Of a stretch of 64,000 bases of DNA, positions 1,992 to 57,783 are shown piece after piece (positions within the stretch are counted from its first letter, which is position 1; each line of letters opens with the position of its first letter). Position numbers and translations under genes: made by a program. The notes beneath the pieces are model-generated. The model ran no database searches, was not told where the DNA came from, and saw only the letters and a program-made list of their open reading frames with translations. Source of the DNA: an uncultured Gammaproteobacteria bacterium (lineage in GTDB: Bacteria; Patescibacteriota; Microgenomatia; Woykebacterales; RBG-16-39-9b). The stretch lies in assembly GCA_964643435.1 (NCBI GenBank), contig CAZXPY010000001.1, forward strand, positions 74,802-138,801, in the 5' to 3' direction.

Positions 1992-2701
1992 TTGCGGTAA
2001 TTTTTGCTGGTGGTTTAGGTATCAGACTTCGACCCCTAACCCAAGTAACTCCAAAACCACTAATCCCTATTAAAAATAAACCCTTTTTGTGGTACCAGAT
2101 AAAATTGCTTTCTTCTTTTGGCGTAAAAAAATTTATTATTCTAACCGGTTATTTATCGAATCTGATCGAAGATTATTTTGAAGACGGTACAAAATTAGGA
2201 GTTGAGATTATTTATTCAAGAGAAAATTCCCCCCTCGGTACTGGCAGAGCGTTAAAATTGGCCTCACCCTTAATAAAAGAAAATTTCCTCCTTTTAAACG
2301 GAGACGATATTCCCATAATCGACTACGCTCTTTTTTTTGCAATTGTTAAAAGTGGTCAATTCCCGAATATAATAACCGTTCATAAAGGGGGAAAAAGAGG
2401 AAATTTAAAAGTTGATAAAAGAACTGGTTACGTGCTCTTCTATTCAAAGGTGAGAAACGAGAGTTTTAATTATGTCCACAGCGGTTTGTCGTTTTTTAAT
2501 AAAGATGTTCTAGATCTTTTACCAAAGGGTAGATATGATGTTGAGGAAGAATTATTTAATAAACTAGCTAAAAAGAAAAAATTAGTCTATTTTGAAGCTT
2601 TGGGTAGAACTTTATCTATCGGTACCTACCCACGCTTACGTCGAAGCCGTTTCTTGCTAGAACGCTTCATTATTAGTTATATTGATAATAAAGAAATTTA
2701 A
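1988..2701 (+). CDS. Sugar-1-phosphate nucleotidyltransferase (D-glycero-alpha-D-manno-heptose 1-phosphate guanylyltransferase, HddC-like)
   Basis: N-terminus MIAVIFAGGLGIRLRPLT..KPLIPI matches the NDP-sugar pyrophosphorylase signature GGxGTRL; 4-nt ATGA overlap with gmhA. Confidence 0.65.
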   Translation: MIAVIFAGGLGIRLRPLTQVTPKPLIPIKNKPFLWYQIKLLSSFGVKKFIILTGYLSNLIEDYFEDGTKLGVEIIYSRENSPLGTGRALKLASPLIKENFLLLNGDDIPIIDYALFFAIVKSGQFPNIITVHKGGKRGNLKVDKRTGYVLFYSKVRNESFNYVHSGLSFFNKDVLDLLPKGRYDVEEELFNKLAKKKKLVYFEALGRTLSIGTYPRLRRSRFLLERFIISYIDNKEI

Positions 2702-3414
2702 TGACTAAAATTGCAGTTGTTTTACCTACTTATAATGAAAAAGAGAATATCCAAAAAATTATTCCCCAAATTCTTTCCCAAAATAAAGATATATCAATAA
2801 TCGCCGTTGATGACAATAGTCCAGACGGTACGGGAAAAATACTGGATAACCTAGGTAAAAAATATAATGGTAGGGTGAAAACCCTGCATCGAAATAAAAG
2901 GGGAGTTGGTAGCGCAGTTAGGGATGGCCTAAAAGAAGCGTTAAGATTAAAGGCAGATTACGTAGTTCAGATGGATGCCGATTTTTCTCATCATCCAAAT
3001 TATCTCCCCTCTCTAATTAAGGGAATAAATAATGGGGTTGATGTTACGATTGGGTCTCGGTATGCAAAAGGAGGGGACATTATGAGTAGAAGTACCTTGC
3101 GTAATTTTATTTCAATGGCGGCAAATTTTTACAACCGTAGTTTACTTGGAGTTTGGGAAGTAAAAGATAGTGCTGGTGGTTTTAAATGCTCAAAGAGAGC
3201 TGTTTTGGAAGCAATAAATTTAGATACTTTTTTATCGAATGGCTATAGTATTGGGATCGAGCAGCTTTATCGAATTCACAGAAAAGGATTCAAAATGAAG
3301 GAAGTGCCGATTATTTTTAACGATCGAAATGCGGGTAATTCTAAAATGGATCTAAGGGAAATTTTAAAATATATAATTACTGTTTTAAGAATAAAGTTTA
3401 GTGGTTTTAAATGA
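2701..3414 (+). CDS. GT2 family polyprenyl-phosphate hexose synthase (Dpm1/GtrB/ArnC-like)
   Basis: VVLPTYNEKENI.., VDDNSPDGT, DxD-type motif QMDADFSHHP, about 237 aa with no transmembrane tail; typical Dpm1-like architecture. Confidence 0.75.
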   Translation: MTKIAVVLPTYNEKENIQKIIPQILSQNKDISIIAVDDNSPDGTGKILDNLGKKYNGRVKTLHRNKRGVGSAVRDGLKEALRLKADYVVQMDADFSHHPNYLPSLIKGINNGVDVTIGSRYAKGGDIMSRSTLRNFISMAANFYNRSLLGVWEVKDSAGGFKCSKRAVLEAINLDTFLSNGYSIGIEQLYRIHRKGFKMKEVPIIFNDRNAGNSKMDLREILKYIITVLRIKFSGFK

Positions 3415-4061
3415 ACGCAATTCCTAATTATGTAAAAATTAAAGGAACTTTTTACGATGAACTGACTGATCCAAAAAAAGTTGGGATATTTAGATCTTGG
3501 TTGCATAATGCCCGCTACGAAAGGCTAAGAGAGAGCGTAAAAAAATATTACAAAAAAGGCGACGTGGTTTTGGATTTAGCTTGTGGCGGTTGTAATTGGA
3601 ACAGGGATAAAATTCCGGTTGTCGGCGTCGATATTAACGAAAACTTGCTAAACTTCGGGCTAAAAAACGGTCGCTTAAGCAGAAAAATTGTCGCCGATAT
3701 TTACCGGATTCCTTTAAAAAGTAACTTTGCGGATATTGTAATAATGAGTGAAATTTTAGAACACGTTTCTGAAATAGATAAAGTATTAGCTGAAAGCAAG
3801 AGAATCTTAAAGGTAGACGGAAAATTAATTACGAGCGTTCCTTACGATTCTTTCCCCAGTCCTCATCTGGCGCTTTTCACGGTCCACTGCCTTATTAAAG
3901 GCTATATTTTTGGAGATCCTTATTATAAGAAATTTTGCGGTCATATTAATCGCTTTTCAATGAGGAAAATACGTTCTATTTTAGCCAATCATTTTAAAAT
4001 AATCGAACAATTCCCCGAGCATATGCTCCATATTTTTACCATTGCTGAAAAAATTACTTAA
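3411..4061 (+). CDS. Class I SAM-dependent methyltransferase
   Basis: SAM motif I VLDLACGGCNW; acidic loop after beta-2; about 216 aa. Confidence 0.65.
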   Translation: MNAIPNYVKIKGTFYDELTDPKKVGIFRSWLHNARYERLRESVKKYYKKGDVVLDLACGGCNWNRDKIPVVGVDINENLLNFGLKNGRLSRKIVADIYRIPLKSNFADIVIMSEILEHVSEIDKVLAESKRILKVDGKLITSVPYDSFPSPHLALFTVHCLIKGYIFGDPYYKKFCGHINRFSMRKIRSILANHFKIIEQFPEHMLHIFTIAEKIT

Positions 4062-4878: not shown

Positions 4879-4932
4879 TTTTTAATTATTCTAACATTAA
4901 GTAAAAATTCCGAAATTAGATTTCTGACCTTG

Positions 4933-4962
4933 TTGACAATGATGTTCTCTTTACCGTATAAT
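4933..4962 (+). promoter_or_regulatory. Sigma70-like promoter (TTGACA, 18-nt spacer, TATAAT) upstream of the secreted-protein gene
   Basis: TTGACA at 4933-4938 and TATAAT at 4957-4962, both exact consensus hexamers, in the 88-bp intergenic region ahead of the 4973 ORF. Confidence 0.4.
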
Positions 4963-9520: not shown

Positions 9521-10633
9521 GTGAAAATAGTCGTTATTATCCCCACGTACAACGAGAGAGAGAATATTGGTCCCTTAATTGATGCCCTTGAAGAAGAATT
9601 CGCTAAAATACCCCATGATTGCCATATCTTAGTAGTTGATGACAATTCTCCAGATAAAACCGCCCAAGTTGTAAAAGAAAAAATGGCCCAGTACGATGGA
9701 ATTTATCTCCTTACTGGTGCCAAAGCGGGTTTAGGTGCCGCTTATATCAGGGGAATGAAGTTTGCCAACGATAAACTCAAGGCGGACGCGGTTATGGAGA
9801 TGGATGCTGATTTTTCCCATAAACCTTCCGATGTCCCGAGATTAATTAAAGAACTGGACGAAGGTTACGATTTTGTTATTGGTTCGCGGCATATAAAGGG
9901 AGGCAGTATTCCCGCTGATTGGTCTTTGCTGCGTAAGCTAAACACAAAGGTAGCTAATTTGGTTGCCAGATATTTAGCCGGACTCTACCGGGTTAAAGAT
10001 TGTACCGCTGGATTTCGAGCGATTAATACGGCTCTTTTGCGAAAAATTGATCTAGATAATATCCGTACGAAAGGCTACTCCTTCCAAATCGGGATTTTAC
10101 ACGAGGCCATAAATGCAGGGGCGGTGATAAAAGAAGTGCCAGTTGATTTTATTGATCGAAAGAAAGGAGAAACAAAACTAGGATTTAATGTAAAAGAGCG
10201 GGTTCTTTTTATTTGGGACAGTATCTTAATTCGGTTTGAAAAAAGTGAAACTTTCTTTAAATTTGCCACGGTTGGTGCCACTGGAGTAGCGGTAAATTTA
10301 GGTTCACTTTTTATCCTTTACGAAAACTTTGGGATAATAAAAGAAATAGCATCGCCAATTGCAATTGAATTTTCAATAATTACGAATTTCCTTTTTAATA
10401 ATTCTTGGACCTTTAGTGAGCGAAAGGCAAGCTCACCTTTTTTAATAAAACTTATCAAGTTTAATATAGTTTCCTTGCTAGCTCTAATAGTTACTTACAC
10501 TACTTTTTTGATTACAACTCGCGTCTTTGGTGTATACTATCTAGTTGCTCAAAGTTTAGGAATTGTTTTGGCAATGCTTTGGAATTATTTTGTTAATTCA
10601 ATCTGGACCTGGAAAATAATAAAAGAAGGATAA
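9521..10633 (+). CDS. Fusion protein: GT2 polyprenyl-phosphate hexose synthase (Dpm1/GtrB-like) + C-terminal GtrA-like flippase domain
   Basis: GTG start. N-terminus IIPTYNERENI, VDDNSPDKT, MDADFSH. The C-terminal ~130 aa (from about nt 10240) are four hydrophobic helices typical of the GtrA family (..VGATGVAVNLGSLFILYE.. ..NNSWTF..). Confidence 0.7.
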   Translation: MKIVVIIPTYNERENIGPLIDALEEEFAKIPHDCHILVVDDNSPDKTAQVVKEKMAQYDGIYLLTGAKAGLGAAYIRGMKFANDKLKADAVMEMDADFSHKPSDVPRLIKELDEGYDFVIGSRHIKGGSIPADWSLLRKLNTKVANLVARYLAGLYRVKDCTAGFRAINTALLRKIDLDNIRTKGYSFQIGILHEAINAGAVIKEVPVDFIDRKKGETKLGFNVKERVLFIWDSILIRFEKSETFFKFATVGATGVAVNLGSLFILYENFGIIKEIASPIAIEFSIITNFLFNNSWTFSERKASSPFLIKLIKFNIVSLLALIVTYTTFLITTRVFGVYYLVAQSLGIVLAMLWNYFVNSIWTWKIIKEG

Positions 10634-10642: not shown

Positions 10643-11368
10643 ATGAAAGGCGTGGTTTTAGCTGGCGGAAAAGGTACAAGGCTCTACCCCCTAACCTTCG
10701 CTACTAACAAACACTTACTTCCAGTTTACGACAAACCAATGATTTTTTACCCAATCGAAACTCTTATAAGAGCGGGAATACGCGATATTATGGTTGTTAC
10801 TGGTGGTCCTCACGCTGGTCATTTTATTCACGTTTTAAAAAACGGGAAGGAATTGGGTATAAATCATCTTGAATTTACTTACCAGGAGAATGAAGGCGGT
10901 ATTGCTCACGCCCTTTCGTTAGCGGCTGATTTTGCCGATGGGGGCTCAATTACAGTTATTTTGGGGGACAATACTACCGATGCCAATATTAAAAAAGAGG
11001 TTGACAATTTTAAAGAAGGGGCCCTTATTTTTCTGAAAGAAGTCCAAGAACCCTCTCGTTTTGGTGTTCCTGTTTTTGACAGAAAAGGTAAAATTACTTC
11101 TATCGAAGAGAAACCAAAAAACCCTAAATCGAATATGGCAGTTACCGGTCTTTATATTTATGACGCTAAAGTTTTTGACTTTATTAAAAGGATCGAACCT
11201 TCAGATCGTGGAGAGCTAGAAATTACTGATGTTAATAATTTATATCTAAAAACCGGCCAATTAAATCACACTGTTTTACCGGGTTTTTGGTCTGATTCTG
11301 GTACTTTCGAAAGTCTTTTTCGTTCTAACCTTTTTTGGGCAACAAAAAAAGGTAAAATTTCTCTATGA
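10643..11368 (+). CDS. Short-form sugar-1-phosphate nucleotidyltransferase (RmlA/SpsI-like)
   Basis: MKGVVLAGGKGTRLYPLT..NKHLLPV signature; about 241 aa short form. Confidence 0.7.
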   Translation: MKGVVLAGGKGTRLYPLTFATNKHLLPVYDKPMIFYPIETLIRAGIRDIMVVTGGPHAGHFIHVLKNGKELGINHLEFTYQENEGGIAHALSLAADFADGGSITVILGDNTTDANIKKEVDNFKEGALIFLKEVQEPSRFGVPVFDRKGKITSIEEKPKNPKSNMAVTGLYIYDAKVFDFIKRIEPSDRGELEITDVNNLYLKTGQLNHTVLPGFWSDSGTFESLFRSNLFWATKKGKISL

Positions 11369-12318
11369 AGGTACTTATTACTGGAATCGCGGGTTTCGCC
11401 GGTAGTCACCTCGTCGATCTTCTTCTCACCTTTAAAAATCTAAAAATCTCGGGGACGGTTCTTGAAGAAAAAAATATCGAAAATATAGCCGCCCGCAAAG
11501 ACAAATTAGTTTTGTTAGCTGGTGATTTACGTGACGCATATTTTGTGGGTGAGACTATCAAAAAAATTAAGCCAGACCTTATTTTTCACCTAGCCGGTAT
11601 TTCTTCAGCGGCGGTCAGTTTACAAAAGCCAAAAGAGACTTTAGAGAGTAATATAAGCGCTAATTTTAATTTACTAGAAGCAATAAAAAATTACAGCAGG
11701 GAAAGTAAAGTCTTAATTGTTGGAAGCGCCGAAGAGTACGGTTTGGTGGCAGATAGGGATTTACCTATCGATGAAGAAACGCCGTTGCGTCCGGCTAACC
11801 TTTACGGCGTTTCCAAAATAGCCGTAGATTTTTTAGCCTTGCAGTATTTTTATTCTTATAAAATTAAAGTTGTTAGAATAAGACCTTTTAATCATATCGG
11901 TCCAAGACAGAAACCAGAGTTTGTGGTGGCTGATTTCGCCAACCAAATTGCTAAAATTATTTTAAATGAAACTTCTGCGTGGGTGCGCGTGGGTAATCTA
12001 GATGTAAAAAGAGATTTTACCGATGTTAGAGATATTGCCAGGGCGTACTGGCTAGCTTTAGAAAAAGGGCAATTCGGTGATGTTTATAATTTAGGTAGCG
12101 GCAAATCATATACAATTAGGACAATTCTACAAAAGTTAATAGATATTAGCGGTAGGAAGATAAAAATAAAACAGGACCCAGGAAAGTTACGTCCAGTTGA
12201 TATTCCAAATCTATTGTGTGATAATACAAAATTTGTGAAACAAACTGGTTGGCAGCCTACAATTCGGATTGACCAAAGTTTGAAGGACACGCTAGAATAT
12301 TTCAAGGTAAGCAAATGA
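11365..12318 (+). CDS. NAD-dependent epimerase/dehydratase, GDP-4-keto-6-deoxy-D-mannose reductase (Rmd)-like
   Basis: Rossmann N-terminus [12 protein letters not shown]; YxxxK SDR motif; lies immediately upstream of gmd with an ATGA overlap. Confidence 0.5.
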
Positions 12319-13289
12319 AAAAAGCACTGATAACTGGTGTTACCGGGCAAGACGGTTCCTACTTAGCCGAATTTCTAATAAAAAAAGGGTATCAAGTTTT
12401 TGGTTTAACAAGACGCAACAGTACCCCAAATTATGAGCGTATCGCTCATATTATTGAAAAAATTACCCTTCTCCAAGGGGATTTACTCGATGAACATTCC
12501 CTCACTAATGCGATTAAAGAAAGCGATCCTGACGAAGTTTATAACCTAGCGGCCCAGTCGTTTGTTCCTACCTCTTGGAACCAGCCAGTTTTAACTGGAG
12601 AATTTACTGCTCTTGGAGTAACAAGAGTTTTAGAAGCAATAAAGTTAATAAAACCTACGGCCCGGTTTTACCAAGCTTCTAGTTCCGAGATGTTTGGCAA
12701 GGTTTTAGAAGCTCCCCAAAACGAAAAAACCCCCTTTTATCCAAGAAGTCCCTATGGAGTTGCCAAAGTTTACGGCCATTGGATTACGGTGAACTACCGG
12801 GAGTCTTATGGGCTATACGCTGTTAGTGGTATTTGCTTTAACCACGAATCACCGAGAAGAGGATTAGAATTTGTTACCAGAAAAATAAGTAACGGGGTTG
12901 CTAGAATTAAATTAGGATTACAAAAAGATTTACACCTAGGAAATCTAGAAGCAAAAAGAGATTGGGGGTACGCACTCGACTATGTTGAAGCAATGTGGTT
13001 AACCCTGCAACAAAAAAAGCCTCAAGATTTTGTAATTGCCACGGGGAAGAGCCATTCGGTAAGAGATTTCGTTGAGGTGGCCTTTGAACACGTGGGAATT
13101 AAGAATTGGAATAGGTATGTAGTAGGGGATAAAAAATTAATTAGATTGGCAGAGGTTGACTACTTAGTTGGTGACGCAACGAAAGCAAGAAGAATCTTAA
13201 ATTGGAAGCCTAAGGTTAGTTTTAAAGAATTAGTTAAAATGATGGTAGATGCCGATTTGAAGTCTGAACAAAAAAATCTTAGACTTTAA
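12315..13289 (+). CDS. gmd: GDP-mannose 4,6-dehydratase
   Basis: [33 protein letters not shown] and NHESPRRG motifs are classic Gmd. Confidence 0.85.
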
Positions 13290-13394
13290 AGTTAAATTTT
13301 TATTTTTTTAAGTAAAATGACACTTTCCTTTTTGATTACAATTTCCAGAAGTTCTTTAGGAAAAATTTATAATTAATGAAAAAGATGGGTCGCG

Positions 13395-13835
13395 ATGAAA
13401 ATTGATAAAGACGAAATTGAGGATTGTAAAAAAGTACCAACATTTGACCAAAACGGAGAGGAAAATGGTTTTTTAACCGAACTTTTTAAAAAGGGTAATA
13501 AAACTACTGCTTATCTTTCAGGAGTAAAAACTGGCGGTTTCAAAGGCTATCATCTTCACCGTATTCGAGCGGCTAATTATGTCTGCATCAAAGGTAAGAT
13601 GAAAATAATTTTATACCTTAGAGACGGAGGCCGTTACGTACGAAAAGAATATATTTTAGACGCAAATAAGCCTCAAAGACTATTTATCCCACCCTTAGTA
13701 CCAACTGGGCTACAAAATATTGCTTCCGAAGAATCCTGGCTTATTAATTATCCTTACCCTCCCTATGACCCGGCTCTTTTAGATGAACAAATTGAATATA
13801 CGCAAGAAGAACTGGATAAAGGAGTAGTTAAGTGA
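13395..13835 (+). CDS. Cupin-fold NDP-4-keto-6-deoxyhexose isomerase/epimerase (WxcM/FdtA-like or divergent RmlC)
   Basis: About 146 aa; GYHLHR (His-x-His) and a beta-rich cupin pattern; sits directly before rmlB/rmlD. Confidence 0.45.
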   Translation: MKIDKDEIEDCKKVPTFDQNGEENGFLTELFKKGNKTTAYLSGVKTGGFKGYHLHRIRAANYVCIKGKMKIILYLRDGGRYVRKEYILDANKPQRLFIPPLVPTGLQNIASEESWLINYPYPPYDPALLDEQIEYTQEELDKGVVK

Positions 13836-30600: not shown

Positions 30601-30620
30601 TCGCCCCTTCTTATTTTATA

Positions 30621-33211: not shown

Positions 33212-33222
33212 AGGGAAAAAAT

Positions 33223-33240
33223 GAGATTTTCATCTCTTTT
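33223..33240. terminator. Small hairpin + T-run (weak intrinsic terminator/attenuator-like)
   Basis: GAGAT-TTTC-ATCTC followed by TTTT, with an A-run upstream. Only a 5-bp stem. Confidence 0.15.
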
Positions 33241-33249
33241 ATAAATAAA

Positions 33250-34452: not shown

Positions 34453-34468
34453 TTTAAAAATTGGAATA

Positions 34469-47372: not shown

Positions 47373-49175
47373 TTGATACCCAATAATATTTTCTTCATCG
47401 TAGAATTTCTTTGCTTTTAAAACATTTTCAATAAGATCGACACTTAGTCCTAGACTTCTTCTTCCTTCCTCGTAATATTTTTTATGAATTAGTATGTATT
47501 TTACCTTTAAATCTTTGAAGGTTTTTTGGACGATATCTCTATTTAAATCTTCTTCTAAAACTAATTGATTTCCCGGTTCGGCAAGATAATGGAGAAGAGG
47601 TATCTTTCGGTAATAAAAAACATTTTCTGCGGGGAGTCTAGCAACTGTGCCTCTAAATATCTTTTTTTGATGAACGCTTTGGTAAAACTGTAAACTGCCG
47701 ATTGGTCCGTAACCAAAAATAAAGTTTCCAGTATTCCAGCCAACCGGTAAATCTAAAATTACAAAATCACCACTTTCGCGAGCTATATCTTGATAAATCT
47801 TTGGGACAGTAAGGTTGGTTGTAGGAAGCGATGGTGTGTATTCTATCAATAATAGGCTTACGGTAATCGCAAAAATAATCAAACCCACTTTTTTCTTGGT
47901 TCTGGAAAGAATCTCTTTTAAAGAAAAGGCGGTTAGAATTGCCAGAGGCAACATTGTAAACGGGTGCATTCTAATCGGCTCTTGGATACCGCCGATAAAG
48001 GGTAATTTGTGGTAAAAAATAAAGGGAAGCAAGAAAAACTTGGTAGGATTCAGCTCAAATTGATTAAAAGTACTTCCACTCTCAAAAAAATGAAGCCTAG
48101 GACCAAGACTTAAAATAAAAAAAGAAAAGGCTAAAAAGTAGAAAAGACCCAACTGCTTTTTTTCCTCGATATTCTTTTTAAGTAGAAAAAAGACATAAAT
48201 TAGTACTAAAAATAAAACAGTGTAGCCGATATATAGTGTACCTTCTGTACTACTGATGGCAGATGGAGCTTTCGAAAATTTATTAAGCAGAGGATTTCCC
48301 GCCCAAGGAAAGAGAAAATAAGAAATATCCGCACCGTAAACGTTTTGAACACTTAAGGAAACGCCAGGATGGAATCCCTCTTTTATGGTTTTAAAAGCAG
48401 CCAAAGCAAAAGGTGAAAAAATCACTAGGAAAGTAATGCCGGCGGTTACTAAACGTTTTAACGTAGAGGTCGAAAGCAGTTCTTTACCCCAAAAAATAAA
48501 ATAATAAAAAATAACCAGTAATGTTAAAAACATTGTGAAGGAAGTGTAGGTTAGATCATTAAGTCCCTGAAGACCAAAAAATAATCCTGTAAAAAAAGCA
48601 TTTTTGTAACTACCCTCCTTTAAAGTTTTCAATAGAAAAAGTAAATAAAAAGGAGTAAACCAGGCAGTAATTAAATTTGTATGGTAATCACCGCTTTGCG
48701 CAAAAATATAAGGAAAAAAAGCGAAGACCAAACCGGCAAAAAAGGAAGCGAGTTTTGATTTTGTTAAATAAAATGACAAAAAAAAGGTACCTAAACCTGA
48801 CAAGACAAAACCAATATAAAAAATAATATTAGAGGCAGCTATCAAGCCGAATAAAAATTGAAACGGCAGCGAAAAAATAGCATTGGTAAAGGTATGAATA
48901 TCAAAGGTTCGATTTATAACTTGAGGATAAAAAATATAATCCGTATAAAAGGGATTTTGCCTTAAATCCAATACTGAGAATTTAAACCACCACAAGTACC
49001 AGACATGGGTTGGACTATCCTCATCCACCCCTGGAATATTGGTAGTAAATTTAAATATGAGCGGAAAAGTAAAAAATATTGCGAGAAGTAAATAAATAAG
49101 AGAAATAATAAGTAAATGACGGTTAGCATTAAGTTTTTCAACTATTTTCACTGAATTAGTATACTTTTCTTTCAC
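47364..49175 (-). CDS. Large polytopic membrane protein, GT-C-like putative glycosyltransferase (paralog of 37913..40033)
   Basis: 603 aa with many TM helices; convergent with the upstream GT4, stop codons overlapping by 9 nt. Confidence 0.4.
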   Translation of the reverse strand: MKEKYTNSVKIVEKLNANRHLLIISLIYLLLAIFFTFPLIFKFTTNIPGVDEDSPTHVWYLWWFKFSVLDLRQNPFYTDYIFYPQVINRTFDIHTFTNAIFSLPFQFLFGLIAASNIIFYIGFVLSGLGTFFLSFYLTKSKLASFFAGLVFAFFPYIFAQSGDYHTNLITAWFTPFYLLFLLKTLKEGSYKNAFFTGLFFGLQGLNDLTYTSFTMFLTLLVIFYYFIFWGKELLSTSTLKRLVTAGITFLVIFSPFALAAFKTIKEGFHPGVSLSVQNVYGADISYFLFPWAGNPLLNKFSKAPSAISSTEGTLYIGYTVLFLVLIYVFFLLKKNIEEKKQLGLFYFLAFSFFILSLGPRLHFFESGSTFNQFELNPTKFFLLPFIFYHKLPFIGGIQEPIRMHPFTMLPLAILTAFSLKEILSRTKKKVGLIIFAITVSLLLIEYTPSLPTTNLTVPKIYQDIARESGDFVILDLPVGWNTGNFIFGYGPIGSLQFYQSVHQKKIFRGTVARLPAENVFYYRKIPLLHYLAEPGNQLVLEEDLNRDIVQKTFKDLKVKYILIHKKYYEEGRRSLGLSVDLIENVLKAKKFYDEENIIGYQLY

Positions 49176-49213: not shown

Positions 49214-50695
49214 ATGATAAGGTTTTGGCGGAAGAATTGGCTTTTTGGTTGCTTATTGATTATTTTTTTTGTCGCCTACACATACCTTACTTTAACGCTG
49301 CATTATCGCTTTAACACAACTGATGCGGATCTCGCAATTTATGATCAACATGTTTGGTTTCTTTCTAGGGGAGATTTTTTGGGTTACGGTGGTACCTTCA
49401 AACCTTTCAATATTTTTGGTGATCATCTTATTTTACATTTTTTTTGGATAGCCCCACTTTATAGAATTTTTGCTGATGCAAAGATCCTGATAATAATTCA
49501 AAATCTAGCAATAGTAGGTAGCGCGATACCACTTTATCTTATTGCTAAAGAGAGTTGGAAGGATTTGGTTGCAACACTATTTTTTGTTGCTTCTTACTTA
49601 CTTTTCTACGGATTTCAAGCCGCAAGTATTTTTCCTTTTCATGGTACCACATTAAGCGTCTTCTTTATTTCTTGGCTACTATTTTTTATGTATAAAAAAC
49701 AATGGAGGTTGTTTTTCTTATTTTTAATCCTTTCTTTAGCAGCCAAAGAAGACGTTGCGACCTTTACTTTCTTTATTGGACTATATCTAATTTTTATTCA
49801 AAGAAATCTTAAAATCGGAATTATTACTTCTTTACTAAGTGTTGCTTGGTTTTATCTTAGTATTTTCAAGATAATGCCTTTCTTTGCTGCTGGTAGGCCC
49901 TACGCTTATTTTGTTGAGAGCCAGAACCAGAAATTGTTGAATCCTGTTAGATTAATCGCAGAGATGTTTTTTCCTTGGGTGAAAACGAGAACCCTGTTTT
50001 CGCTGTTTGGTTCTTTTGGTTTTCTCCCCTTATTTGCTCCTCTACAATTAGCTCTTAGCTTTCCTTTTTTGGTAGCTAGGTTTACTTCGACGACAATTCA
50101 AAGATGGCTTCCTTGGATGCACTATAGTACTAACCAGGCACCAATTTTAGGATTCGCCGCTATATTTGGATTGGTAAATTTATATGCCATCTTAAAAAAA
50201 TTCAATATCTTAAAATTTTTAGTAGCAAGTAGAATTAATTTTTATCGATATCTAACTTTAGCAACACTGCTCGCAACTACTGTAATTGGTTTTTATTACA
50301 AGATGCCCTTATATAAATTATTTGATATTAGCTTTTATAAGGAACCCCCGGGTGTCAGTACAATCAGAGAAGCACTTACAATAATCCCTAAAGATGGGGA
50401 AATATCAGTAGCAACCCAATCAGGGCTTCTGCCTCATCTCTCTCACCGAAGGAAAATCCATATGTATCCTCATCCCGCTTATTCAAACCCACCAATTGGT
50501 GAGGATTTAGGTGATGATGCTTCAATTGAAAAATACGCTATTCCAAACGTGGATTACATTATACTTTCAAAGTATGCGTTTCACTGGCGGCCAACGAACA
50601 CTCGTTTTGAGGAGGTTATAAATTTTATAAAAAAGCAACCAAATTACAAAGTACTATTCGAAAAAGAGGGAACTTTGGTAGTTAAAAAAGTATAA
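49214..50695 (+). CDS. Polytopic membrane protein, DUF2079-like
   Basis: N-terminal ..TTDADLAIYDQHVWFLSRGD.. resembles the DLGIFDQ signature of the DUF2079 membrane protein family; about 12 TM helices. Confidence 0.35.
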   Translation: MIRFWRKNWLFGCLLIIFFVAYTYLTLTLHYRFNTTDADLAIYDQHVWFLSRGDFLGYGGTFKPFNIFGDHLILHFFWIAPLYRIFADAKILIIIQNLAIVGSAIPLYLIAKESWKDLVATLFFVASYLLFYGFQAASIFPFHGTTLSVFFISWLLFFMYKKQWRLFFLFLILSLAAKEDVATFTFFIGLYLIFIQRNLKIGIITSLLSVAWFYLSIFKIMPFFAAGRPYAYFVESQNQKLLNPVRLIAEMFFPWVKTRTLFSLFGSFGFLPLFAPLQLALSFPFLVARFTSTTIQRWLPWMHYSTNQAPILGFAAIFGLVNLYAILKKFNILKFLVASRINFYRYLTLATLLATTVIGFYYKMPLYKLFDISFYKEPPGVSTIREALTIIPKDGEISVATQSGLLPHLSHRRKIHMYPHPAYSNPPIGEDLGDDASIEKYAIPNVDYIILSKYAFHWRPTNTRFEEVINFIKKQPNYKVLFEKEGTLVVKKV

Positions 50696-51431: not shown

Positions 51432-53036
51432 ATGCAAAAAATTTTGAACGCTAGTTACGAAAAAGCTTTTTATATTATTCTTTTTATAGTAACAGTTATT
51501 TTCTTAAAAATTAACTCCACCTATAGTTTTATTGGAAGGGGAGATTACGCAAATTACGCTACTGTGGCAAGAAATTTAGTTGTAGGTCGTGGGTTTACGG
51601 TTGATTTTATTGCCCAATATTTTATTCCCTACGAGAGCGTTCATCACCCGGAAGATATGTGGCCACTGCTTCAGAGCGTATGGATGGCGGCTAGCTTTTT
51701 AATCTTCGGTGTTAATCAATTTTCGGCGAGACTACCAAACGTCATTTTTCTTGCTTTTCTTTCGTTAGCTTCATATTTCATCGCTAGAAAGCTATTTAAT
51801 AAACAAATCGCTTTTTGGGCAGGAATATTAACTCTCCTAAATACAAACCTAATTCTTTATTCAACCGAACTAATAACCAGCGATGTTGCTTTTGCGGCCT
51901 TTTCATTGATAATTTTCTACTTGGGTTCATTGCTTATTATTGAATTAAGAGATGGAGGAACAAGTTACAAAAAATTCTTTCTTTTCGGAATATTGAATGG
52001 TTTAGCGGTTTTACAAAAACCCCTGGCTATTATTTATTTGCCCCTTTATTTAGTTATTTTTGCAATTGTCGCTCGCAAAAAAATAAAACTAATTTTTAAA
52101 CCAGTTGTTTTTTCTTTGATCGGAGCTTTAATTTTTACCGCACCATTTTTTATAAGAAATTTAAGATTATTTGGAACATTTCTGCTACCAGTCGAAAACT
52201 ACCTTTCCTACCTGATTAAATACACCCCTTACGAAGCTATCTTTAGTATTTACTATGATAAGTTACCTTCGTTTAGGACAGCTCTGGAGGGAGGTTTTAT
52301 TAATTTCTTAAAGATTAATTTCACCTATTTTCGGTTTGGAGTAGATACTTTTGTTTATAAAGACTTGTTAATTCCTTATACAGTAATAGTTTTAAGTTTA
52401 TTGGGAATTGGTATTTTAAAAACTAGAGAGCAGAAGTCTTTCTTTTTCACGCCAATAATATTTTTTTTAATTTTTTCGGCGGTTATGACTTTTTATTGGC
52501 ACTACGAATCTCGTTATTACGCCTCGTTTATCCCACTTGCTAATATGTTGGCTGTATACGCTCTTTTTGTCTTTGTTGAAAAGTTTTCAAATCCTTCGAA
52601 GGTTATTATTATCGTAATTTTAGCTTTAATTACTTTTCTGCCAAGTATTAAATCAATTTACCTTGGACTGGGTAAAAAACCAATTGATCCTTCCTTGAGG
52701 GCATATGAATGGATTAGAGATAACACACCAAAAGAAGCGGTAATTTACGGTTTAGGACCTTGGGAACTCCACTATCATTCTGAAAGAGCAGCGCTAATGA
52801 TACCATACAATGGGTTCGGGGACATTTTGTATATGGCGAAAAAACATCAGGTTAATTATCTTGTCCTTGAATTTTTGAAAGAAATAAAACGTCCCGCTCT
52901 TGAAGATTTATATACAGGCAAAGAAACCGAAGTTTTCAGCCGTATTTATCAAGATCCAGAAAAGGTGCTTATTTACAAAATTAATTGGGAAAAAGTTAAT
53001 CTGGAAAGCTATCCAAAACCAGAATGGTTCAAATAA
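51432..53036 (+). CDS. GT-C membrane glycosyltransferase, ArnT/PMT_2-like (GT39/GT83)
   Basis: ..DMWPLLQSVWMAASFLIFGVNQFSARLPNVIFLAFLSLASYFIARKLF.. matches the ArnT/PMT N-terminal loop-TM signature; 534 aa. Confidence 0.6.
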   Translation: MQKILNASYEKAFYIILFIVTVIFLKINSTYSFIGRGDYANYATVARNLVVGRGFTVDFIAQYFIPYESVHHPEDMWPLLQSVWMAASFLIFGVNQFSARLPNVIFLAFLSLASYFIARKLFNKQIAFWAGILTLLNTNLILYSTELITSDVAFAAFSLIIFYLGSLLIIELRDGGTSYKKFFLFGILNGLAVLQKPLAIIYLPLYLVIFAIVARKKIKLIFKPVVFSLIGALIFTAPFFIRNLRLFGTFLLPVENYLSYLIKYTPYEAIFSIYYDKLPSFRTALEGGFINFLKINFTYFRFGVDTFVYKDLLIPYTVIVLSLLGIGILKTREQKSFFFTPIIFFLIFSAVMTFYWHYESRYYASFIPLANMLAVYALFVFVEKFSNPSKVIIIVILALITFLPSIKSIYLGLGKKPIDPSLRAYEWIRDNTPKEAVIYGLGPWELHYHSERAALMIPYNGFGDILYMAKKHQVNYLVLEFLKEIKRPALEDLYTGKETEVFSRIYQDPEKVLIYKINWEKVNLESYPKPEWFK

Positions 53037-53762: not shown

Positions 53763-55065
53763 GAAAATTACCAAAAAAGAGTTTCTATTCCTTCTTACCC
53801 CCCTTGTTTTAGGCGCAGTAATTCTCTTTTTTAAACTTGGTAGTTTATTTCAAAATTTAAATGGAGATGAATATGCTTTTTTGCTGATCTCAGAACAGTT
53901 AAAAGGGGAACCATACTTACCATATCTCATCTGGCCTAAAGATTTGGGTTCAACTCATACTTTATTGCCCTATTTAATACAAATACCGATAGCTTTTTTT
54001 GGAATAACTAATTTTGCGGTTCGGTTTATTCCCGCTCTATTTGGATTATTGGGAATAATTACCTTTTATTTACTTTTACGCAATTTATTTGAAAGTTCCC
54101 AGATAGCCTTTATCGGAGCTACTTTACTAGCACTAACACGTTGGTACTTTACTATATCCAGATTAACCTACGAATTATCAGAAATGCTTTTCTTTGCCAT
54201 AGCTAATCTGTTATTTTTAGTTTTGTTTTTAAAAGCAAAAGACGAAAAATTTAAATTTAAAAATTTAACTGTTAAAAAGAGCTTTGTATATGTTTTTCTT
54301 GTTGGTCTGACTTTAGGTCTTCTGCAACACTCTTACGCGGCAGCAAGAATTTACCCTTTTCTTTATCTAATATTATTTATTTTTTACTTTCTTTATAAAA
54401 GGAAAAAATTTTTAGAAAACGTGATAAATTTTTTTCTTTTTTCAATCGCTTTTTTAATAATTATCTCTCCTTTAATTTATGTTTGGCTCAAACACCCAAA
54501 TGCTTTTGATGCCCGTGGTGCAGAACTCGTTTTTGCCCAAAACCTCTCTTTTAATGATTTAATTTGGTCGCTGAAACAATCTACTTTACGCACTTTAGGG
54601 ATGTTTCAGCTAAGAGGAAGCGATGTTAGTTGTTATAATCTTCCGAACCTGCCGATGCTTGACCCTTTAAGCGGTTTTCTTTTCCTGGTGGGATTAATCT
54701 TATCTTTTACTACTCTTAGACCGGTATATTCTTTTGTATTTCTGGCTTTTCTACTTTTTTCACTGCTGCCAAGCATTTTAAGCTACTGGCCAGCCACTCC
54801 GCAAGGATTGCGGGCTGCTGGCTCAATCGTTCCAATTGTTTTGTACACGACAATTGGGTTAGAAACTGTGGCTAAACTTTTTAAAAAGTATTATATTCAC
54901 ATCATTGTTGTGGTTATTTCAGTAATTGCGATCGTTAATTTACAGATTTATTTCAGATATCAACCGCAGTTACAAGATGATTGTTTTAAATCTAAAGTAG
55001 AAAATTTTGAGGACTTCAAAAAACACTTTCTTAAAGAAACCGGCAGTGTTAAATTTATAAGATGA
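53737..55065 (+). CDS. GT-C membrane glycosyltransferase, ArnT/PMT_2-like
   Basis: ..NGDEYAFLLISEQL.. ..PYLIQIPIAFFGITNFAVRFIPALFGLLGIITFYLLLRNLF..; 442 aa. Confidence 0.5.
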   Translation: MIGWDIMIKKITKKEFLFLLTPLVLGAVILFFKLGSLFQNLNGDEYAFLLISEQLKGEPYLPYLIWPKDLGSTHTLLPYLIQIPIAFFGITNFAVRFIPALFGLLGIITFYLLLRNLFESSQIAFIGATLLALTRWYFTISRLTYELSEMLFFAIANLLFLVLFLKAKDEKFKFKNLTVKKSFVYVFLVGLTLGLLQHSYAAARIYPFLYLILFIFYFLYKRKKFLENVINFFLFSIAFLIIISPLIYVWLKHPNAFDARGAELVFAQNLSFNDLIWSLKQSTLRTLGMFQLRGSDVSCYNLPNLPMLDPLSGFLFLVGLILSFTTLRPVYSFVFLAFLLFSLLPSILSYWPATPQGLRAAGSIVPIVLYTTIGLETVAKLFKKYYIHIIVVVISVIAIVNLQIYFRYQPQLQDDCFKSKVENFEDFKKHFLKETGSVKFIR

Positions 55066-56165
55066 AAAATTTGATTAAGTTATCAACTCCAATTATTGGT
55101 AAGGAAGAAATAAATGGAATAGCAGCAGTTTTGAAGAATGGTCAAATCTCCCAAGGTCCTTACGTTGAAGCATTCGAAAGAGAGTTTAGTCGCTTTGTTG
55201 GTGCGAAATATGCGGTCGCGGTTTCTTCGGGAACAGCCGCTTTGCATCTAACCCTTTTAGCCTTAGATATAAAAAAAGGCGACGAAGTTATAACGACTCC
55301 TTTTTCTTTCATTGCCACAGCAAACTCTATTACTTACACCGGTGCCAGGCCAGTATTTGTAGATATTGACGAAACTTTCAACCTTAAACCTGGTTCTGTT
55401 GAAAAGAAAATTACAAAAAATACAAAAGCAATTTTGGTGGTTCATCTTTTTGGTTTACCAGCGGATATAAAAACTATTAATAAAATTGCCAAAAAATACA
55501 ATTTAAAAATAATTGAAGATGCCTCTCAGGCTCACGGTGCAAAAATTGGTAATAGATATATTGGAACTTTTGGTAACGCCGCTTGTTTTTCCTTTTACGC
55601 GACTAAGAATATTACTACTGGCGAGGGCGGTATGGTTGTAACTAACGAAAAAAAATTAGCGGAAAAAATTAGGAACTTAAGAAATCATGGTCGAAACAAA
55701 AAGGGACAGTATTCTATTTTGGGTTATAATTTTCGAATGAACGAAATACAAGCAGCATTAGGGTCCGCTCAATTGAAAAAACTTAAAACCAATAATCACC
55801 AAAGAATAAAAAATGCAATTTATTTAAGTAACTCTTTAAAAGATATCAAAGGAATTATTTTACCGACAGTTCCTGGCGGATTCACTCATGTTTTTCACCA
55901 ATACACACTAGTAGTAACCCCCCTAGTAAAAAAGACAAGAGAAGAAATCGTAGAATCAATGAATAAAAGTGGGATTGAAGTGGGAATTTTCTATAATCCG
56001 CCTATCCACAAACAACCTCTTTACAAAAAATTAGGCTACAGAGATAAATTACCAGTTGCTGAAAGATTTTCAAGAGAAGTTTTATCATTACCAATCCATC
56101 CTTTAATTACTAAAAAAGATCTGGATTATATAGCGAGATCTTTTAGGGAGTCTTTAAATGAATAA
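55062..56165 (+). CDS. DegT/ArnB/WbpE-like PLP-dependent sugar aminotransferase
   Basis: ..AVSSGTAALHL.., ..CFSFYATKNITTGEGGMV.. (Lys of the internal aldimine); 367 aa. Confidence 0.8.
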   Translation: MKNLIKLSTPIIGKEEINGIAAVLKNGQISQGPYVEAFEREFSRFVGAKYAVAVSSGTAALHLTLLALDIKKGDEVITTPFSFIATANSITYTGARPVFVDIDETFNLKPGSVEKKITKNTKAILVVHLFGLPADIKTINKIAKKYNLKIIEDASQAHGAKIGNRYIGTFGNAACFSFYATKNITTGEGGMVVTNEKKLAEKIRNLRNHGRNKKGQYSILGYNFRMNEIQAALGSAQLKKLKTNNHQRIKNAIYLSNSLKDIKGIILPTVPGGFTHVFHQYTLVVTPLVKKTREEIVESMNKSGIEVGIFYNPPIHKQPLYKKLGYRDKLPVAERFSREVLSLPIHPLITKKDLDYIARSFRESLNE

Positions 56166-57084
56166 GATTTTAAGGTTGGGAGTTGTTGGTGTTGGTTCAA
56201 TTGGCAAAGAACACGTCCGGATCTTAAGTAAGTTGAAAGATTGTGTGCTGGTAGGTATCGTGGATACGGATCAACAACTCGCGGCGGTAGTTGCTGAAAG
56301 ATTTTCAACGCGCCGGTTTAAAAAACCCGATGATCTCTTTGCCCAAAACATTGACGCAATTAGTATTTGTACTCCGACCTCATCCCATTTTAGAATAGCG
56401 CGAACGGCTATTGAGAAAAATATCCACTCTTTAATTGAAAAACCAATAACAAAAACTATTTCTCAAGCTAAGAAACTAATAGATCTAGCCGAGAAGAAAA
56501 AATTGAAGCTTATGGTTGGATACGTTGAGAGATTTAACCCAATCGTAGCGGTTATAAAAAGAAGAATAAAAGGGGAAACGGTCATATCGATTAATTTCAC
56601 GCGAGTCGGGCCTGTCCCACCGAAAGTAGGCGATATTGGCATTACTTTGGATTTGGCAACTCACGATATTGATCTTTTAAGATATTTATTAGAGACGGAT
56701 TTTAAAAAAATTAAGTCTGTTTCTTCGACCCAAAACAATCGTGAGGATGCGGCGGTTCTTAGCTTTAAATTGGGCAACGGAACAATTGCTTCAATTGTGA
56801 CGAATTGGTACACTCCTTATAAGGTTAGAAAAATAGAAATAGCCACAAAAAATAAATTCATTGTTGGCGATTTTATTTTACAAGAAGTTCACGAGCATTA
56901 TAATTACAAGGTGGGTGGAACATATTCTACAAAAGTAATACCAGTGAAAAAAACCGAACCCCTAAAAGAAGAGTTAAAAGCTTTTGTTGAGTCCATAAAA
57001 CTAGATAAAATTACAAAAGTTACTGGCGAAGATGGTTTAGAGGCTTTAAAAATAGCCGTAAGATGTACAAAGTTAGCTTCTTAA
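56158..57084 (+). CDS. Gfo/Idh/MocA-family NAD(P)-dependent sugar oxidoreductase (WbpB-like)
   Basis: LRLGVVGVGSIGKEH Rossmann motif; EKP motif. Confidence 0.7.
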   Translation: MNKILRLGVVGVGSIGKEHVRILSKLKDCVLVGIVDTDQQLAAVVAERFSTRRFKKPDDLFAQNIDAISICTPTSSHFRIARTAIEKNIHSLIEKPITKTISQAKKLIDLAEKKKLKLMVGYVERFNPIVAVIKRRIKGETVISINFTRVGPVPPKVGDIGITLDLATHDIDLLRYLLETDFKKIKSVSSTQNNREDAAVLSFKLGNGTIASIVTNWYTPYKVRKIEIATKNKFIVGDFILQEVHEHYNYKVGGTYSTKVIPVKKTEPLKEELKAFVESIKLDKITKVTGEDGLEALKIAVRCTKLAS

Positions 57085-57783
57085 GGCAAATAAAAGCATA
57101 TCTTTGATAGAAGCAAAAACTAGCTTAAAATTAAGCTGACTTGGGTTTTCTTTAGGGTAATGAACAACCGGAACGCTAGCGATTTTAGAACCGGCCCTAC
57201 TTGCTTTAATAAGTCTTTCGCTTTCAGCAAAAACGCTTGTAGATTTAATATCTAAACTTTTGTAAATATGAGATTTTACTAGTTTTGCACAGCCAGCATC
57301 ATGAACCTCAACACCAAACAGTAGTTTTGTAAAGAAATTAAATCCCCAAGACACAAATTTCCGCCCTAAATTGTATTTTTTTACTTTCCTTTTCGCAACA
57401 ACAATATCAAAACCCTCTTGCATTTCTTTCATTAAAGAGGGAAGAATTGACATCTTAATCTCATTATCAGCACCATTAAAAAAAGTCAGATTTCCTTTAG
57501 CCCCAGAATAAAGATCTTTTAAACTTTCTTCAATTCCAAAGTTTTTAATATGGTTAATAATTCTTAGTTTTGGATATTTCTCTCTTAATTTTGATAAAAT
57601 TTGCGGTGTTTTATCGGTGCTGCCGTCATCTACCACTAAAATCTCATAATTGTTAGTTAGTTTTGATGCTTCTTCGTCAGCACTTCTAATAGATTCACTT
57701 ATGTTTTCTTCTTCGTTATAAGCTGGAATTGCGATGGTTAAAGATAAATTTTTCTTCATAAAATTTGCTAAAATCGGAGACAC
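57073..57783 (-). CDS. GT2 polyprenyl-phosphate hexose synthase (Dpm1-like)
   Basis: LTIAIPAYNEEENIS, VDDGSTDKT. The true start may be the internal Met (MKKNLS..), which would reduce the overlap with the HAD gene. Confidence 0.7.
   Translation of the reverse strand: MSPILANFMKKNLSLTIAIPAYNEEENISESIRSADEEASKLTNNYEILVVDDGSTDKTPQILSKLREKYPKLRIINHIKNFGIEESLKDLYSGAKGNLTFFNGADNEIKMSILPSLMKEMQEGFDIVVAKRKVKKYNLGRKFVSWGFNFFTKLLFGVEVHDAGCAKLVKSHIYKSLDIKSTSVFAESERLIKASRAGSKIASVPVVHYPKENPSQLNFKLVFASIKDMLLFALRS

Follow-up and report, generated by a model that had tools for sequence, protein, structure and literature searches.

Predicted transmembrane glycosylation modules and a Wzx-dependent oligosaccharide pathway on a 64-kb stretch from an uncultured groundwater bacterium

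How does a bacterium of the Candidate Phyla Radiation (CPR) build its surface glycans, and why would it carry as many membrane-bound glycosyltransferases as are encoded on the 64-kb stretch of contig CAZXPY010000001.1 analysed here (the window)? The genomes of CPR bacteria are tiny and the cells are believed to live attached to others, but their surface chemistry is scarcely described. A sequence-only reading of the window had claimed an exceptional density of genes for lipid-carrier-dependent glycosylation, namely six Dpm1-like glycosyltransferases of family 2 (GT2), seven large polytopic glycosyltransferases of the GT-C type and two Wzx flippases. We annotated the 57 open reading frames (ORFs) of at least 150 aa by Pfam and, in addition, examined the called genes of the same-strain flanks (8.6 kb upstream and 2.5 kb downstream). 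As argued below, the region most probably encodes several "multi-component transmembrane glycosylation systems" together with a Wzx-dependent oligosaccharide pathway. This reading is carried by the assignment of each component to a family or fold, by the adjacency of the genes and by their conservation in relatives. Genes are named by their lower coordinate and a minus sign marks the reverse strand (Table 1).

All six Dpm1-like GT2 genes are present where predicted and a seventh, 29165, can be added. The six proteins match Pfam Glycos_transf_2 and form with 29165 one related group in blastp comparisons; 29165, whose assignment as Dpm1-like is less certain, is linked to 53037 with E 2e-27. A profile of the seven proteins is of the DPMS/ArnC/GtrB type: the best match in the Protein Data Bank (PDB) is DPMS 5mlz (E 2.2e-55, query positions 3–233, the full catalytic domain), followed by ArnC (~1e-33; 7e-34, positions 4–228) and GtrB sll0501 (~1e-31; 7e-32), and other GT2 structures align with only the N-terminal nucleotide-binding half of the profile. 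For 9521 the likeness includes the domain of four transmembrane (TM) helices, as residues 1–364 align with residues 23–372 of the Pyrococcus furiosus DPMS 5mlz (E 6.4e-55). In NCBIfam the top ranks are held by the dolichyl-phosphate (Dol-P) hexose transferase, AglJ, PgfS, ArnC and PpgS (the first four in the case of 2701), and PgfS is the top or near-top match of four of the six proteins. The equivalog level of a named enzyme (ArnC, PgfS, AglJ or PpgS) is not reached, the best scores being 46–85 bits compared to cut-offs of 325–529. By their sequences the GT2 proteins appear to be family-level kin rather than orthologues of these enzymes, and because the scores are so far under the cut-offs we claim neither orthology nor sugar specificity. 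The DXD motif is intact or conservatively changed in five of the seven proteins (2701, 9521, 23753, 27179 and 53037). The true start of the gene at 23753 is likely the ATG at 23804, right after the stop codon of 21718.

The seven GT-C assignments hold as well. Pfam cut-offs are passed by 21718, 24514, 51432, 53737 and 49214; the remaining two, 37913 and 47364-, are paralogues of each other (blastp E 5.5e-24, 25% identity over 503 aa) and GT-C proteins by fold comparison. This comparison was used because PDB sequence searches with the five proteins and with the 37913/47364- pair gave no meaningful match. All seven proteins have 7–11 TM helices in a hydropathy scan, and helical bundles are visible in the AlphaFold2 models. 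The loop after the first helix (TM1) has an acidic residue in every case (GGD37, EPDE, GD46, VDED, D39/D44, GRGD and NGDE), as described for GT-C enzymes (PMC8035078), and in the PMT_2-type proteins this loop shows ArnT/PMT-like 'DE..Y' motifs such as 'EPDERNY' in 24514. In 49214, D39 of the first outer loop is invariant across the DUF2079 alignment. Weak matches were found in NCBIfam for 21718 (PgfM2), 51432 (ArnT) and 53737 (archaeal STT3 with 31 bits, and Agl23), and in blastp 21718 is weakly homologous to 37913 and 47364-. We also checked whether these large proteins might instead be transporters or homologues of Wzy or ligases, and this was not the case.

For 37913 and 47364- there was no match above cut-off in Pfam and none in NCBIfam or in PDB sequence searches, and a relaxed Pfam search (E ≤ 10) returned only sub-threshold PMT_2 and DUF6541. 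Homologues of 37913 bear precomputed YfhO or DUF6311 matches. The family is very large: in a set clustered at 50% identity it matches 5,866 clusters with E ≤ 1e-30, a number that rises to 27,096 with E ≤ 0.001. The protein has an N-terminal part in the membrane and, at the C-terminus, an outer part made of an alpha/beta and a beta-sandwich fold; its conserved residues are D46 (nearly invariant in the family), H150, H157, E325 and R399. We assign both DUF2079 and this unannotated YfhO/DUF6311-like family to the GT-C fold. We also observed that the Logan gene callers start the 37913 gene 122 codons late (584 aa) and thereby lose TM1 and D46 (window 37913–38278). Translation from the TTG at 37913, which overlaps the stop codon of the preceding gene, agrees with full-length homologues; shortened gene calls of this kind may hide members of the family in databases.

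The genes for GT2 and GT-C proteins are joined by stop/start overlaps or tiny gaps, and twice a single GT2 gene is flanked by a GT-C gene on either side (21718/23804/24514 and 51432/53037/53737). These groups, of which the sequence-only reading had noted the adjacency of 23804 with 24514 and of 51432 with 53037 and 53737, match the multi-component systems and the Pgf operon of Firmicutes (PMC8035078, PMC12041528). Logan contigs from three runs match both window ends at 100% identity and lengthen the region in both directions. The upstream flank holds an epimerase of the SDR type, a split transketolase and then a third group of one GT2 and two GT-C genes, here with the GT2 first: a Dpm1-like GT2 (237 aa), a YfhO protein (742 aa, paralogue of 21718, E 2e-23) and a PMT_2-like protein (538 aa, paralogue of 24514, E 2e-41, motif 'VEPDEWSY'). 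An AlgX-domain protein and the full transaldolase–HddA fusion come next. In the downstream flank (L092, 100% identical to window positions 60013–64000) the GT4 that runs off the window is followed by a second DUF2079 protein (217 bits) and by the first part of what is probably a PMT_2 protein (E 6e-4, under the cut-off). Window and flanks (~75 kb) thus total 7–8 Dpm1-like synthases and 10–11 GT-C genes, and glycosyltransferases make up more than 40% of the ~60 genes in the region.

Table 1. Predicted features of the window (positions count from its first letter; bit scores refer to Pfam or NCBIfam models; aa, amino acids; SDR, short-chain dehydrogenase/reductase; SAM, S-adenosylmethionine; TPP, thiamine pyrophosphate).
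Position	Strand	Feature	Evidence and remarks
1..1369	+	Transaldolase/FSA-like domain fused to HddA-like heptose-7-phosphate kinase	TAL_FSA + GHMP_kinases
1359-1991	+	GmhA-like sedoheptulose-7-P isomerase	SIS_2; gmhA 92 bits, below cut-off
1988-2701	+	Sugar-1-P nucleotidyltransferase	NTP_transferase; HddC 94 bits, below cut-off
2701..3414	+	Dpm1/AglJ-like GT2	237 aa, no TM helix, DAD motif; Glycos_transf_2 101 bits
3411..4061	+	SAM methyltransferase	Methyltransf_11
4054-9310		secA, ZIP transporter, aldo-keto reductase	Housekeeping genes between glycan genes
4967-5572	+	Ala-rich protein	201 aa, one N-terminal hydrophobic helix, no family match
5572-5871	+	99-aa ORF	One TM helix; outer tail rich in Ser, Thr, Pro, Gln ('QPTYQQPTYQPPTT...')
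9521..10633	+	DPMS-type polyprenyl-phosphate hexose synthase	GT2 fused to GtrA/DPMS 4-TM domain (Glycos_transf_2 + GtrA_DPMS_TM); DAD motif
10643..16619	+	RmlA, two 4,6-dehydratase-type SDRs (one GMD-like), RmlB-like, RmlD, epimerase	rmlA 248 bits
13395-13835	+	FdtA/WxcM-like cupin	FdtA 30 bits
16644..21717	+	YvcK/CofD-like UDP-GlcNAc-binding protein, GlmS, UDP-glucose/GDP-mannose dehydrogenase, UXS/ArnA-decarboxylase/RmlB-type SDR
21718..23802	+	GT-C, YfhO family	694 aa, ~11 TM helices; YfhO 66 bits (cut-off 28.5); GGD37 in first outer loop
23753..24517	+	Dpm1-like GT2	DAD motif; Glycos_transf_2 110 bits; PgfS, ArnC among best full-length NCBIfam matches
24514..26070	+	GT-C, PMT_2 family	518 aa, ~9 TM helices; PMT_2 49.8 bits (cut-off 26.1), PMT 40.2 bits, above cut-off
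26073..27182	+	UDP-GlcNAc 2-epimerase	Epimerase_2 385 bits
27179..27907	+	Dpm1-like GT2	EGD replaces DXD; no TM helix; best NCBIfam PgfS, ArnC, AglJ
27886..29178	+	Wzx/MOP-type flippase	12 TM helices; Polysacc_synt 63 bits, Polysacc_synt_3 52 bits
29165..29962	+	Seventh GT2 of the Dpm1-like group	Degenerate DXD (DSG); best NCBIfam ArnC, PpgS (full length)
30031..37929 (block)	+	GNAT and hexapeptide acetyltransferases, GT4 (31303), GT2 (32396), DegT aminotransferase (33250)
within 30031..37929	+	Three GT4 (34403, 35616, 36790)	Variable core
37913..40033	+	GT-C, unnamed YfhO/DUF6311-like family	706 aa, TTG start
40037..42871	+	SDR epimerase/dehydratase, GT4 (41026), methyltransferase (42104)
42868..44307	+	Wzx/MOP flippase	Polysacc_synt_3 226 bits; ~10 TM helices (crude scan)
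44304..47372	+	GT2 (44304), two GT4 (45170, 46203)	GT2 is EpsD/MftF-like, not Dpm1-like
47364..49175	-	GT-C, paralogue of 37913	603 aa; 'VDED' motif behind TM1
49214..50695	+	GT-C, DUF2079 family	493 aa; DUF2079 168.8 bits
50714..51427	-	SAM methyltransferase
51432..53036	+	GT-C, PMT_2 family	534 aa; 'GRGDYANYATVARNL' motif; PMT_2 49.4 bits, Glyco_transf_22 27.4 bits
53037..53762	+	Dpm1-like GT2	DVD motif; GT-C gene on either side; PgfS 83 bits, PpgS 62 bits
53737..55065	+	GT-C, PMT/PMT_2 family	442 aa; 'NGDEYAF' motif; PMT 31.1 bits (cut-off 22.7), PMT_2 29.3
55062..57084	+	PseC/ArnB-like sugar aminotransferase, UDP-GlcNAc 3-dehydrogenase-like oxidoreductase
57073..57783	-	Dpm1-like GT2	Degenerate DXD (GAD); best NCBIfam PgfS, ArnC
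57716..61086	-	HAD phosphatase, ATP-grasp enzyme, acetolactate-synthase-like TPP enzyme	Operon
61190-62362	+	GT4
62290-63462	-	SGNH/GDSL-like protein	Weak match; N-terminal TM helix
starts ~63494	+	GT4	Runs off right window end

Is this density exceptional? In a crude baseline with the same queries, the surroundings of secA in 80 other bacterial genomes (1.47 Mb in all) contained three Dpm1-like and no GT-C matches, compared to seven and seven in the 64 kb of the window. The density is far above that of ordinary bacterial sequence, yet it looks like a recurring trait of the lineage and is not unique to one genome: similar GT-C arrays are found in two related metagenomic genomes (L089 and L090), so that the term "exceptional" is justified only in relation to ordinary bacteria. 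L090 (GCA_030602025.1, JAUWAN010000001.1, 3618–17686) carries two AftD-like and two YfhO proteins followed by PMT/PMT_2, in total four to five GT-C, and this cluster adjoins GHMP-kinase/SIS heptose genes; tandem GT-C arrays tied to heptose synthesis thus recur. In the more distant organism L089 a GT-C protein is only 42% identical but the gene order is kept (GT2, GT4, DegT, three GT4, GT-C, epimerase, GT4, methyltransferase, Wzx, GT2, two GT4, GT-C). Other members of the 37913 family lie in clusters of GT2 and methyltransferase genes. A metagenome scan with 51432 returned a single congeneric sample.

The layout is conserved in close relatives too. Contig Ga0209542_10000947 is colinear with the window from 30.6 to 63.4 kb, and its GT-C, Dpm1-like GT2 and Wzx proteins are 74–95% identical. 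On the contrary, the three GT4 at 34403–37929 share only 44, 52 and 39% identity with those of the congeneric contig (L001, 4920–8406), whereas the flanking genes reach 82–95%; in addition, the congeneric contig has one GT4 and two to three methyltransferases more than the window. A variable GT4 core within a conserved frame for export and transfer is what one would expect of a glycan locus and resembles serotype variation. In short, the layout is kept and the GT4 core varies.

Both Wzx flippases are real (Polysacc_synt, Polysacc_synt_3). One of them, 27886, sits between two Dpm1-like GT2 genes, and the other, 42868, is embedded in the GT4 cluster and matches in NCBIfam the MOP flippase (182 bits), the O-glycosylation flippase (158) and TuaB (137), all under the equivalog cut-offs. 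The neighbouring GT2 44304 also matches AglG. The cytoplasmic glycosyltransferases of the window, previously put at about ten, are slightly more numerous, with eight GT4, one further GT4 crossing the right end and two to three GT2. Among the 57 ORFs of the window there is, in agreement with the sequence-only reading, no Pfam match to Bac_transf, Glycos_transf_4, Wzy_C or Wzz, and neither an initiating phosphoglycosyltransferase (PGT) nor Wzy or Wzz was found in the flanks. In the hydropathy scan the only polytopic proteins of the window are the seven GT-C, the two Wzx, the ZIP transporter and the GT2–GtrA fusion, and none is left over as a cryptic Wzy. Wzy proteins are highly divergent. The lack of a PGT from ~75 kb is weak evidence, because initiating PGT genes often lie outside glycan loci, as does wecA of Escherichia coli. 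The location of 37913, 47364- and 49214 within the Wzx/GT4 cluster points to an oligosaccharide pathway in which these three proteins may handle the flipped glycan, and since no Wzy or ligase is present they are the obvious candidates to take it.

In transmembrane glycosylation systems a GT-A enzyme makes a C55-P-sugar inside, a GtrA- or Wzx-type flippase translocates it and a GT-C protein of the YfhO or PMT_2 family, or without Pfam family, transfers the sugar outside (PMC8035078). In the same way we suggest that the region works in three layers. Firstly, NDP-heptose, dTDP- and GDP-6-deoxyhexoses, UDP-GlcA-derived sugars, UDP-ManNAc and an amino sugar would be supplied. Secondly, the conserved Wzx cluster (8–9 GT4, 2–3 GT2, methyl- and acetyltransferases) would assemble an oligosaccharide on a lipid carrier at the cytoplasmic side of the membrane. 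Thirdly, at least six to seven transmembrane modules would operate: a Dpm1/GtrB/ArnC-like GT2 would move one sugar from a nucleotide sugar to polyprenyl phosphate at the cytoplasmic face, the GtrA-type domain of 9521, Wzx 27886 or another route would bring the lipid-linked sugar across, and a GT-C protein (YfhO, PMT_2, DUF2079 or DUF6311-like) would pass the sugar to an acceptor outside the membrane. We infer the lipid-monophosphate donors, the pairing of GT2 with GT-C proteins, the sugars and the acceptor, which might be an envelope protein, the surface layer (S-layer), a pilus or a wall glycopolymer.

Several observations weigh against this proposal. All NCBIfam matches of the GT2, GT-C and sugar genes are far below the equivalog cut-offs and do not point to particular donor sugars. 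The YfhO match of 21718 spans only the C-terminal 80 residues. Two GT2 have a degenerate DXD motif, 57073- (GAD) and 29165 (DSG). Five to six GT2 lack a TM helix and the window has no small membrane ORF like GacJ or DPM2-3; TM-less GT-A members that need a partner are known, for example GacI with GacJ (PMC8035078). For six to seven synthases there is a single GtrA-type domain, fused in 9521, and a separate small gene of the GtrA flippase family, or any spare small membrane ORF, is not found in the 97%-coding window. The fold matches of the GT-C proteins score equally well for STT3B, AglB and PglB and for Pmt, ArnT and AftD; as judged from the models, the fold cannot tell a lipid-P-monosaccharide from a lipid-PP-oligosaccharide donor. 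In addition, 37913, 47364- and 49214 have no adjacent Dpm1-like GT2; as they lie inside the conserved GT4/GT2/Wzx cluster, they may not be monosaccharide transferases. The sequence-only reading had preferred monosaccharide decoration to Wzy-dependent assembly because it recognised no PGT, Wzy or Wzz; this preference was drawn from gene content and does not extend easily to these three proteins.

The alternative that survives best, though we consider it doubtful, is an en-bloc route like the archaeal Agl pathway and independent of PGT and Wzy. A DPMS/AglJ-type GT2 would prime polyprenyl monophosphate, GT4 and GT2 enzymes would extend the glycan, Wzx 42868 would flip it and 37913 and 47364- would transfer or polymerise the oligosaccharide, whereas the other GT2/GT-C modules would add final sugars as AglD/AglR/AglS do. 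Such a route would fit the absence of PGT, Wzy and Wzz from ~75 kb with each polytopic protein of the window assigned, as well as the finding that 37913 and 47364- stay in the Wzx/GT4 cluster down to 42% identity. AglJ and the Dol-P hexose transferase give the best scores of 9521 and 2701, and the AglG match of 44304 points the same way. The residues D46, E325 and R399 of 37913 resemble the D56/E319/R375 pattern of PglB. A precedent is documented in Haloferax volcanii, where an AglJ-type GT2 primes dolichol monophosphate without a PGT, a GT-C enzyme transfers the glycan and the final sugar is added from a separate Dol-P-sugar via AglD/AglR/AglS (PMC3871713). However, the shared fold and the acidic loop residue occur in all GT-C and do not discriminate, characterised YfhO-family members transfer monosaccharides (PMC8035078, PMC12041528), and other members of the 37913 family have no Wzx in view in their clusters. 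We keep our estimate low because the fold cannot separate the donor types and because the initiating PGT may simply be elsewhere in the genome. It is similarly doubtful that 37913 and 47364- supply the missing 'end-game' step in a bacterial pathway free of PGT and Wzy, which would amount to archaeal-style logic in CPR bacteria.

Somewhat less probable still is a classical Wzx/Wzy locus, the PGT, Wzy and chain-length regulator of which would lie outside the examined sequence or be too divergent, with the GT2/GT-C pairs acting as side-chain decorators like Gtr. Two Wzx genes next to more than 11 cytoplasmic glycosyltransferases and the serotype-like GT4 core would suit such a locus, and the examined sequence ends 2.5 kb downstream and leaves ~10.7 kb of the same-strain contig on the upstream side uncovered. 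Yet each polytopic protein of the window is already a GT-C, Wzx, ZIP or GT2–GtrA protein, the flanks bring more GT2/GT-C instead of PGT or Wzy, and the orthologous L089 cluster is also without PGT or Wzy within 18 kb. Finally, it is very improbable that many modules are redundant or decayed paralogues and that the density overstates the number of working pathways, since in spite of the degenerate DXD motifs and the repeated paralogous groups every gene is an intact ORF and genes are tightly spaced as in operons, the congeneric orthologues are 74–95% identical and undisrupted, and paralogues within the window are only 21–42% identical to each other, which argues for an old and maintained divergence.

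The transmembrane modules and the Wzx-dependent pathway would draw on sugars made nearby; from the neighbouring genes only, these would be heptose, UDP-ManNAc and an amino sugar. The isomerase and the nucleotidyltransferase at 1359..2701 are a probable NDP-heptose module, which runs straight into 2701, the start of this GT2 overlapping the last stop codon of the module. The transaldolase–HddA fusion (NCBIfam HddA 173 bits, under the equivalog cut-off) is cut by the left window end; the full fusion is called in L094, L095 and L096 and has 548 aa in the same-strain contig L094 (8365–10011). The fusion with the split transketolase a few genes upstream and the GmhA/nucleotidyltransferase genes downstream resembles a self-contained line from sedoheptulose-7-P to NDP-heptose; a GmhB phosphatase is not adjacent, and a HAD gene lies at 57716–58402(-). 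The UDP-GlcNAc 2-epimerase comes before GT2 27179 and Wzx 27886. Downstream of 51432/53037/53737, the aminotransferase and oxidoreductase (PseC 342 and UDP-GlcNAc 3-dehydrogenase 274 bits, both below cut-offs; ArnB 269 bits) are a probable amino-sugar module. The YvcK/CofD-like protein (320 bits, above cut-off) and GlmS are found amid the glycan genes (16644–19440), which hints at a coupling of UDP-GlcNAc supply or regulation to the glycan region.

Other genes may modify or receive the glycan. The operon 57716..61086, 79–93% conserved in a relative and with a TPP enzyme scoring 495 bits, slightly below the cut-off of 509, may make an unusual sugar substituent or form a sugar-modification branch. 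Two outer proteins have a single TM helix, the SGNH/GDSL-like protein 62290–63462(-), whose gene overlaps the convergent GT4 61190–62362 by 73 bp, and the AlgX-domain protein of the upstream flank (L094, 7123–8310); these proteins suggest that acetyl groups are added to the glycan by O-acetylation, or removed from it, outside the membrane. The tail of the small protein encoded at 5572–5871 resembles the Ser/Thr-rich disordered regions that are O-glycosylated by GT-C enzymes in streptococci, and by this analogy the protein could be a glycan acceptor.

In the genome contig scan the best secA matches are Microgenomates, Gottesmanbacteria and 'Saccharibacteria' metagenome-assembled genomes (MAGs) with 59–63% identity, and no relative above 63% was found. 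A look-up of exact copies of the SecA product gave no match. Because these best relatives are Microgenomates-type MAGs, we place the host in the Patescibacteria; judged by secA it is a Microgenomates-like bacterium without a close species representative. The related contigs derive from groundwater-type metagenomes, and the source organism is an uncultured groundwater CPR bacterium. In the window the starts and stops of most genes overlap or abut, and the GC content is 0.32–0.40, slightly higher at 1–20 kb (0.35–0.40) than at 22–58 kb (0.32–0.37). We rejected the idea of a mobile island: secA, the ZIP transporter and the aldo-keto reductase lie inside, there is no tRNA and no integrase-type Pfam match in the window, and the GC content stays within the range given. 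The region is chromosomal and composite, and of the earlier term "island" the dense concentration of glycan genes remains but not a discrete or mobile element.

More than 40% glycosyltransferase genes and 10–11 GT-C in ~75 kb suggest an elaborate and variable glycan coat that is central to the biology of the organism, with possible roles in host attachment, phage evasion and modification of the S-layer or a pilus. The parts are of known kinds, and it is their number and clustering which are notable; the region is a rich example and holds no new principle unless the en-bloc reading of the GT-C proteins is true, in which case archaeal-style glycosylation logic would be at work in candidate-phylum bacteria. 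The compact conserved gene set offers a handle for the heterologous reconstitution of polyprenyl-phosphate-dependent glycosylation, and the GT-C fold assignments of DUF2079 and of the large unannotated YfhO/DUF6311-like family are useful side results. Literature searches on GT-C or glycosylation in CPR/Patescibacteria/Microgenomates and on DUF2079 returned nothing relevant, which is not proof of absence.

Among the known systems, the Arn pathway of lipid A modification (Ugd, ArnA, ArnB, ArnC, ArnT) shares with the window a UDP-glucose dehydrogenase, a UXS/ArnA-like SDR, the ArnB-like aminotransferase, ArnC-like GT2 genes and the weak ArnT-like match of 51432. It differs in that the window has no formyltransferase, deformylase or ArnE/F and in that all scores are below cut-offs; to our knowledge, lipid A is not expected in this lineage. 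The lipoglycan/arabinogalactan system likewise uses a large GT-C set fed with polyprenyl-P-sugars by Dpm1-like synthases, but its genes are spread over a 4-Mb genome, its products are known, its proteins are only ~10% identical to those described here and a decaprenyl-P-arabinose pathway (DprE1/2, UbiA-type) is not found in the window.

The Agl system of Haloferax (AglJ/G/I/E, AglB, AglD/AglR/AglS) is alike in using a Dpm1-like GT2 on polyprenyl monophosphate, a Wzx-like flippase and no PGT, and in adding the last sugar by a GT-C protein from a lipid-P-sugar (PMC3871713). In both cases cytoplasmic glycosyltransferases, a methyltransferase, a UDP-glucose dehydrogenase and an NTP-transferase are clustered together. 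Here, on the contrary, the organism is bacterial, GT-C genes are far more numerous and there is no clear STT3/AglB orthologue, 53737 being the nearest with its weak archaeal STT3 match.

The closest parallels are found in Firmicutes. PgfS/PgfE/PgfM1/PgfM2 of Streptococcus mutans and GtrB/PgtC2 of Streptococcus pyogenes and Streptococcus pneumoniae O-glycosylate Ser/Thr-rich disordered regions of envelope proteins, and the Pgf operon with one GT2, two YfhO-type GT-C and an epimerase parallels the groups of one GT2 and two GT-C described here (PMC12041528). These groups differ in pairing a YfhO with a PMT_2-type protein, or two PMT_2-type proteins, in scoring far below the equivalog cut-offs and in having no evident adhesin or Ser/Thr-rich substrate gene except the small ORF 5572–5871 with its tail. 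CsbB/GtcA/YfhO, GtlA/GtlB, GacI/J/K/L and CsdAB/CD/EF likewise combine adjacent GT2 and GT-C genes into a C55-P-sugar synthase, a flippase and a GT-C; GacI is a TM-less GT-A acting with GacJ and GacK is a Wzx-type flippase, and several GT-A/GT-C pairs per genome are known in Bacillus subtilis and Lactococcus lactis (PMC8035078). In contrast to these systems the present region has no free GtrA/GtcA and no GacJ-like partner, and DUF2079 and DUF6311-like GT-C are added. Above all, one to three dispersed pairs there stand against 7–8 synthases and 10–11 GT-C in ~75 kb here, in a candidate-phylum bacterium.

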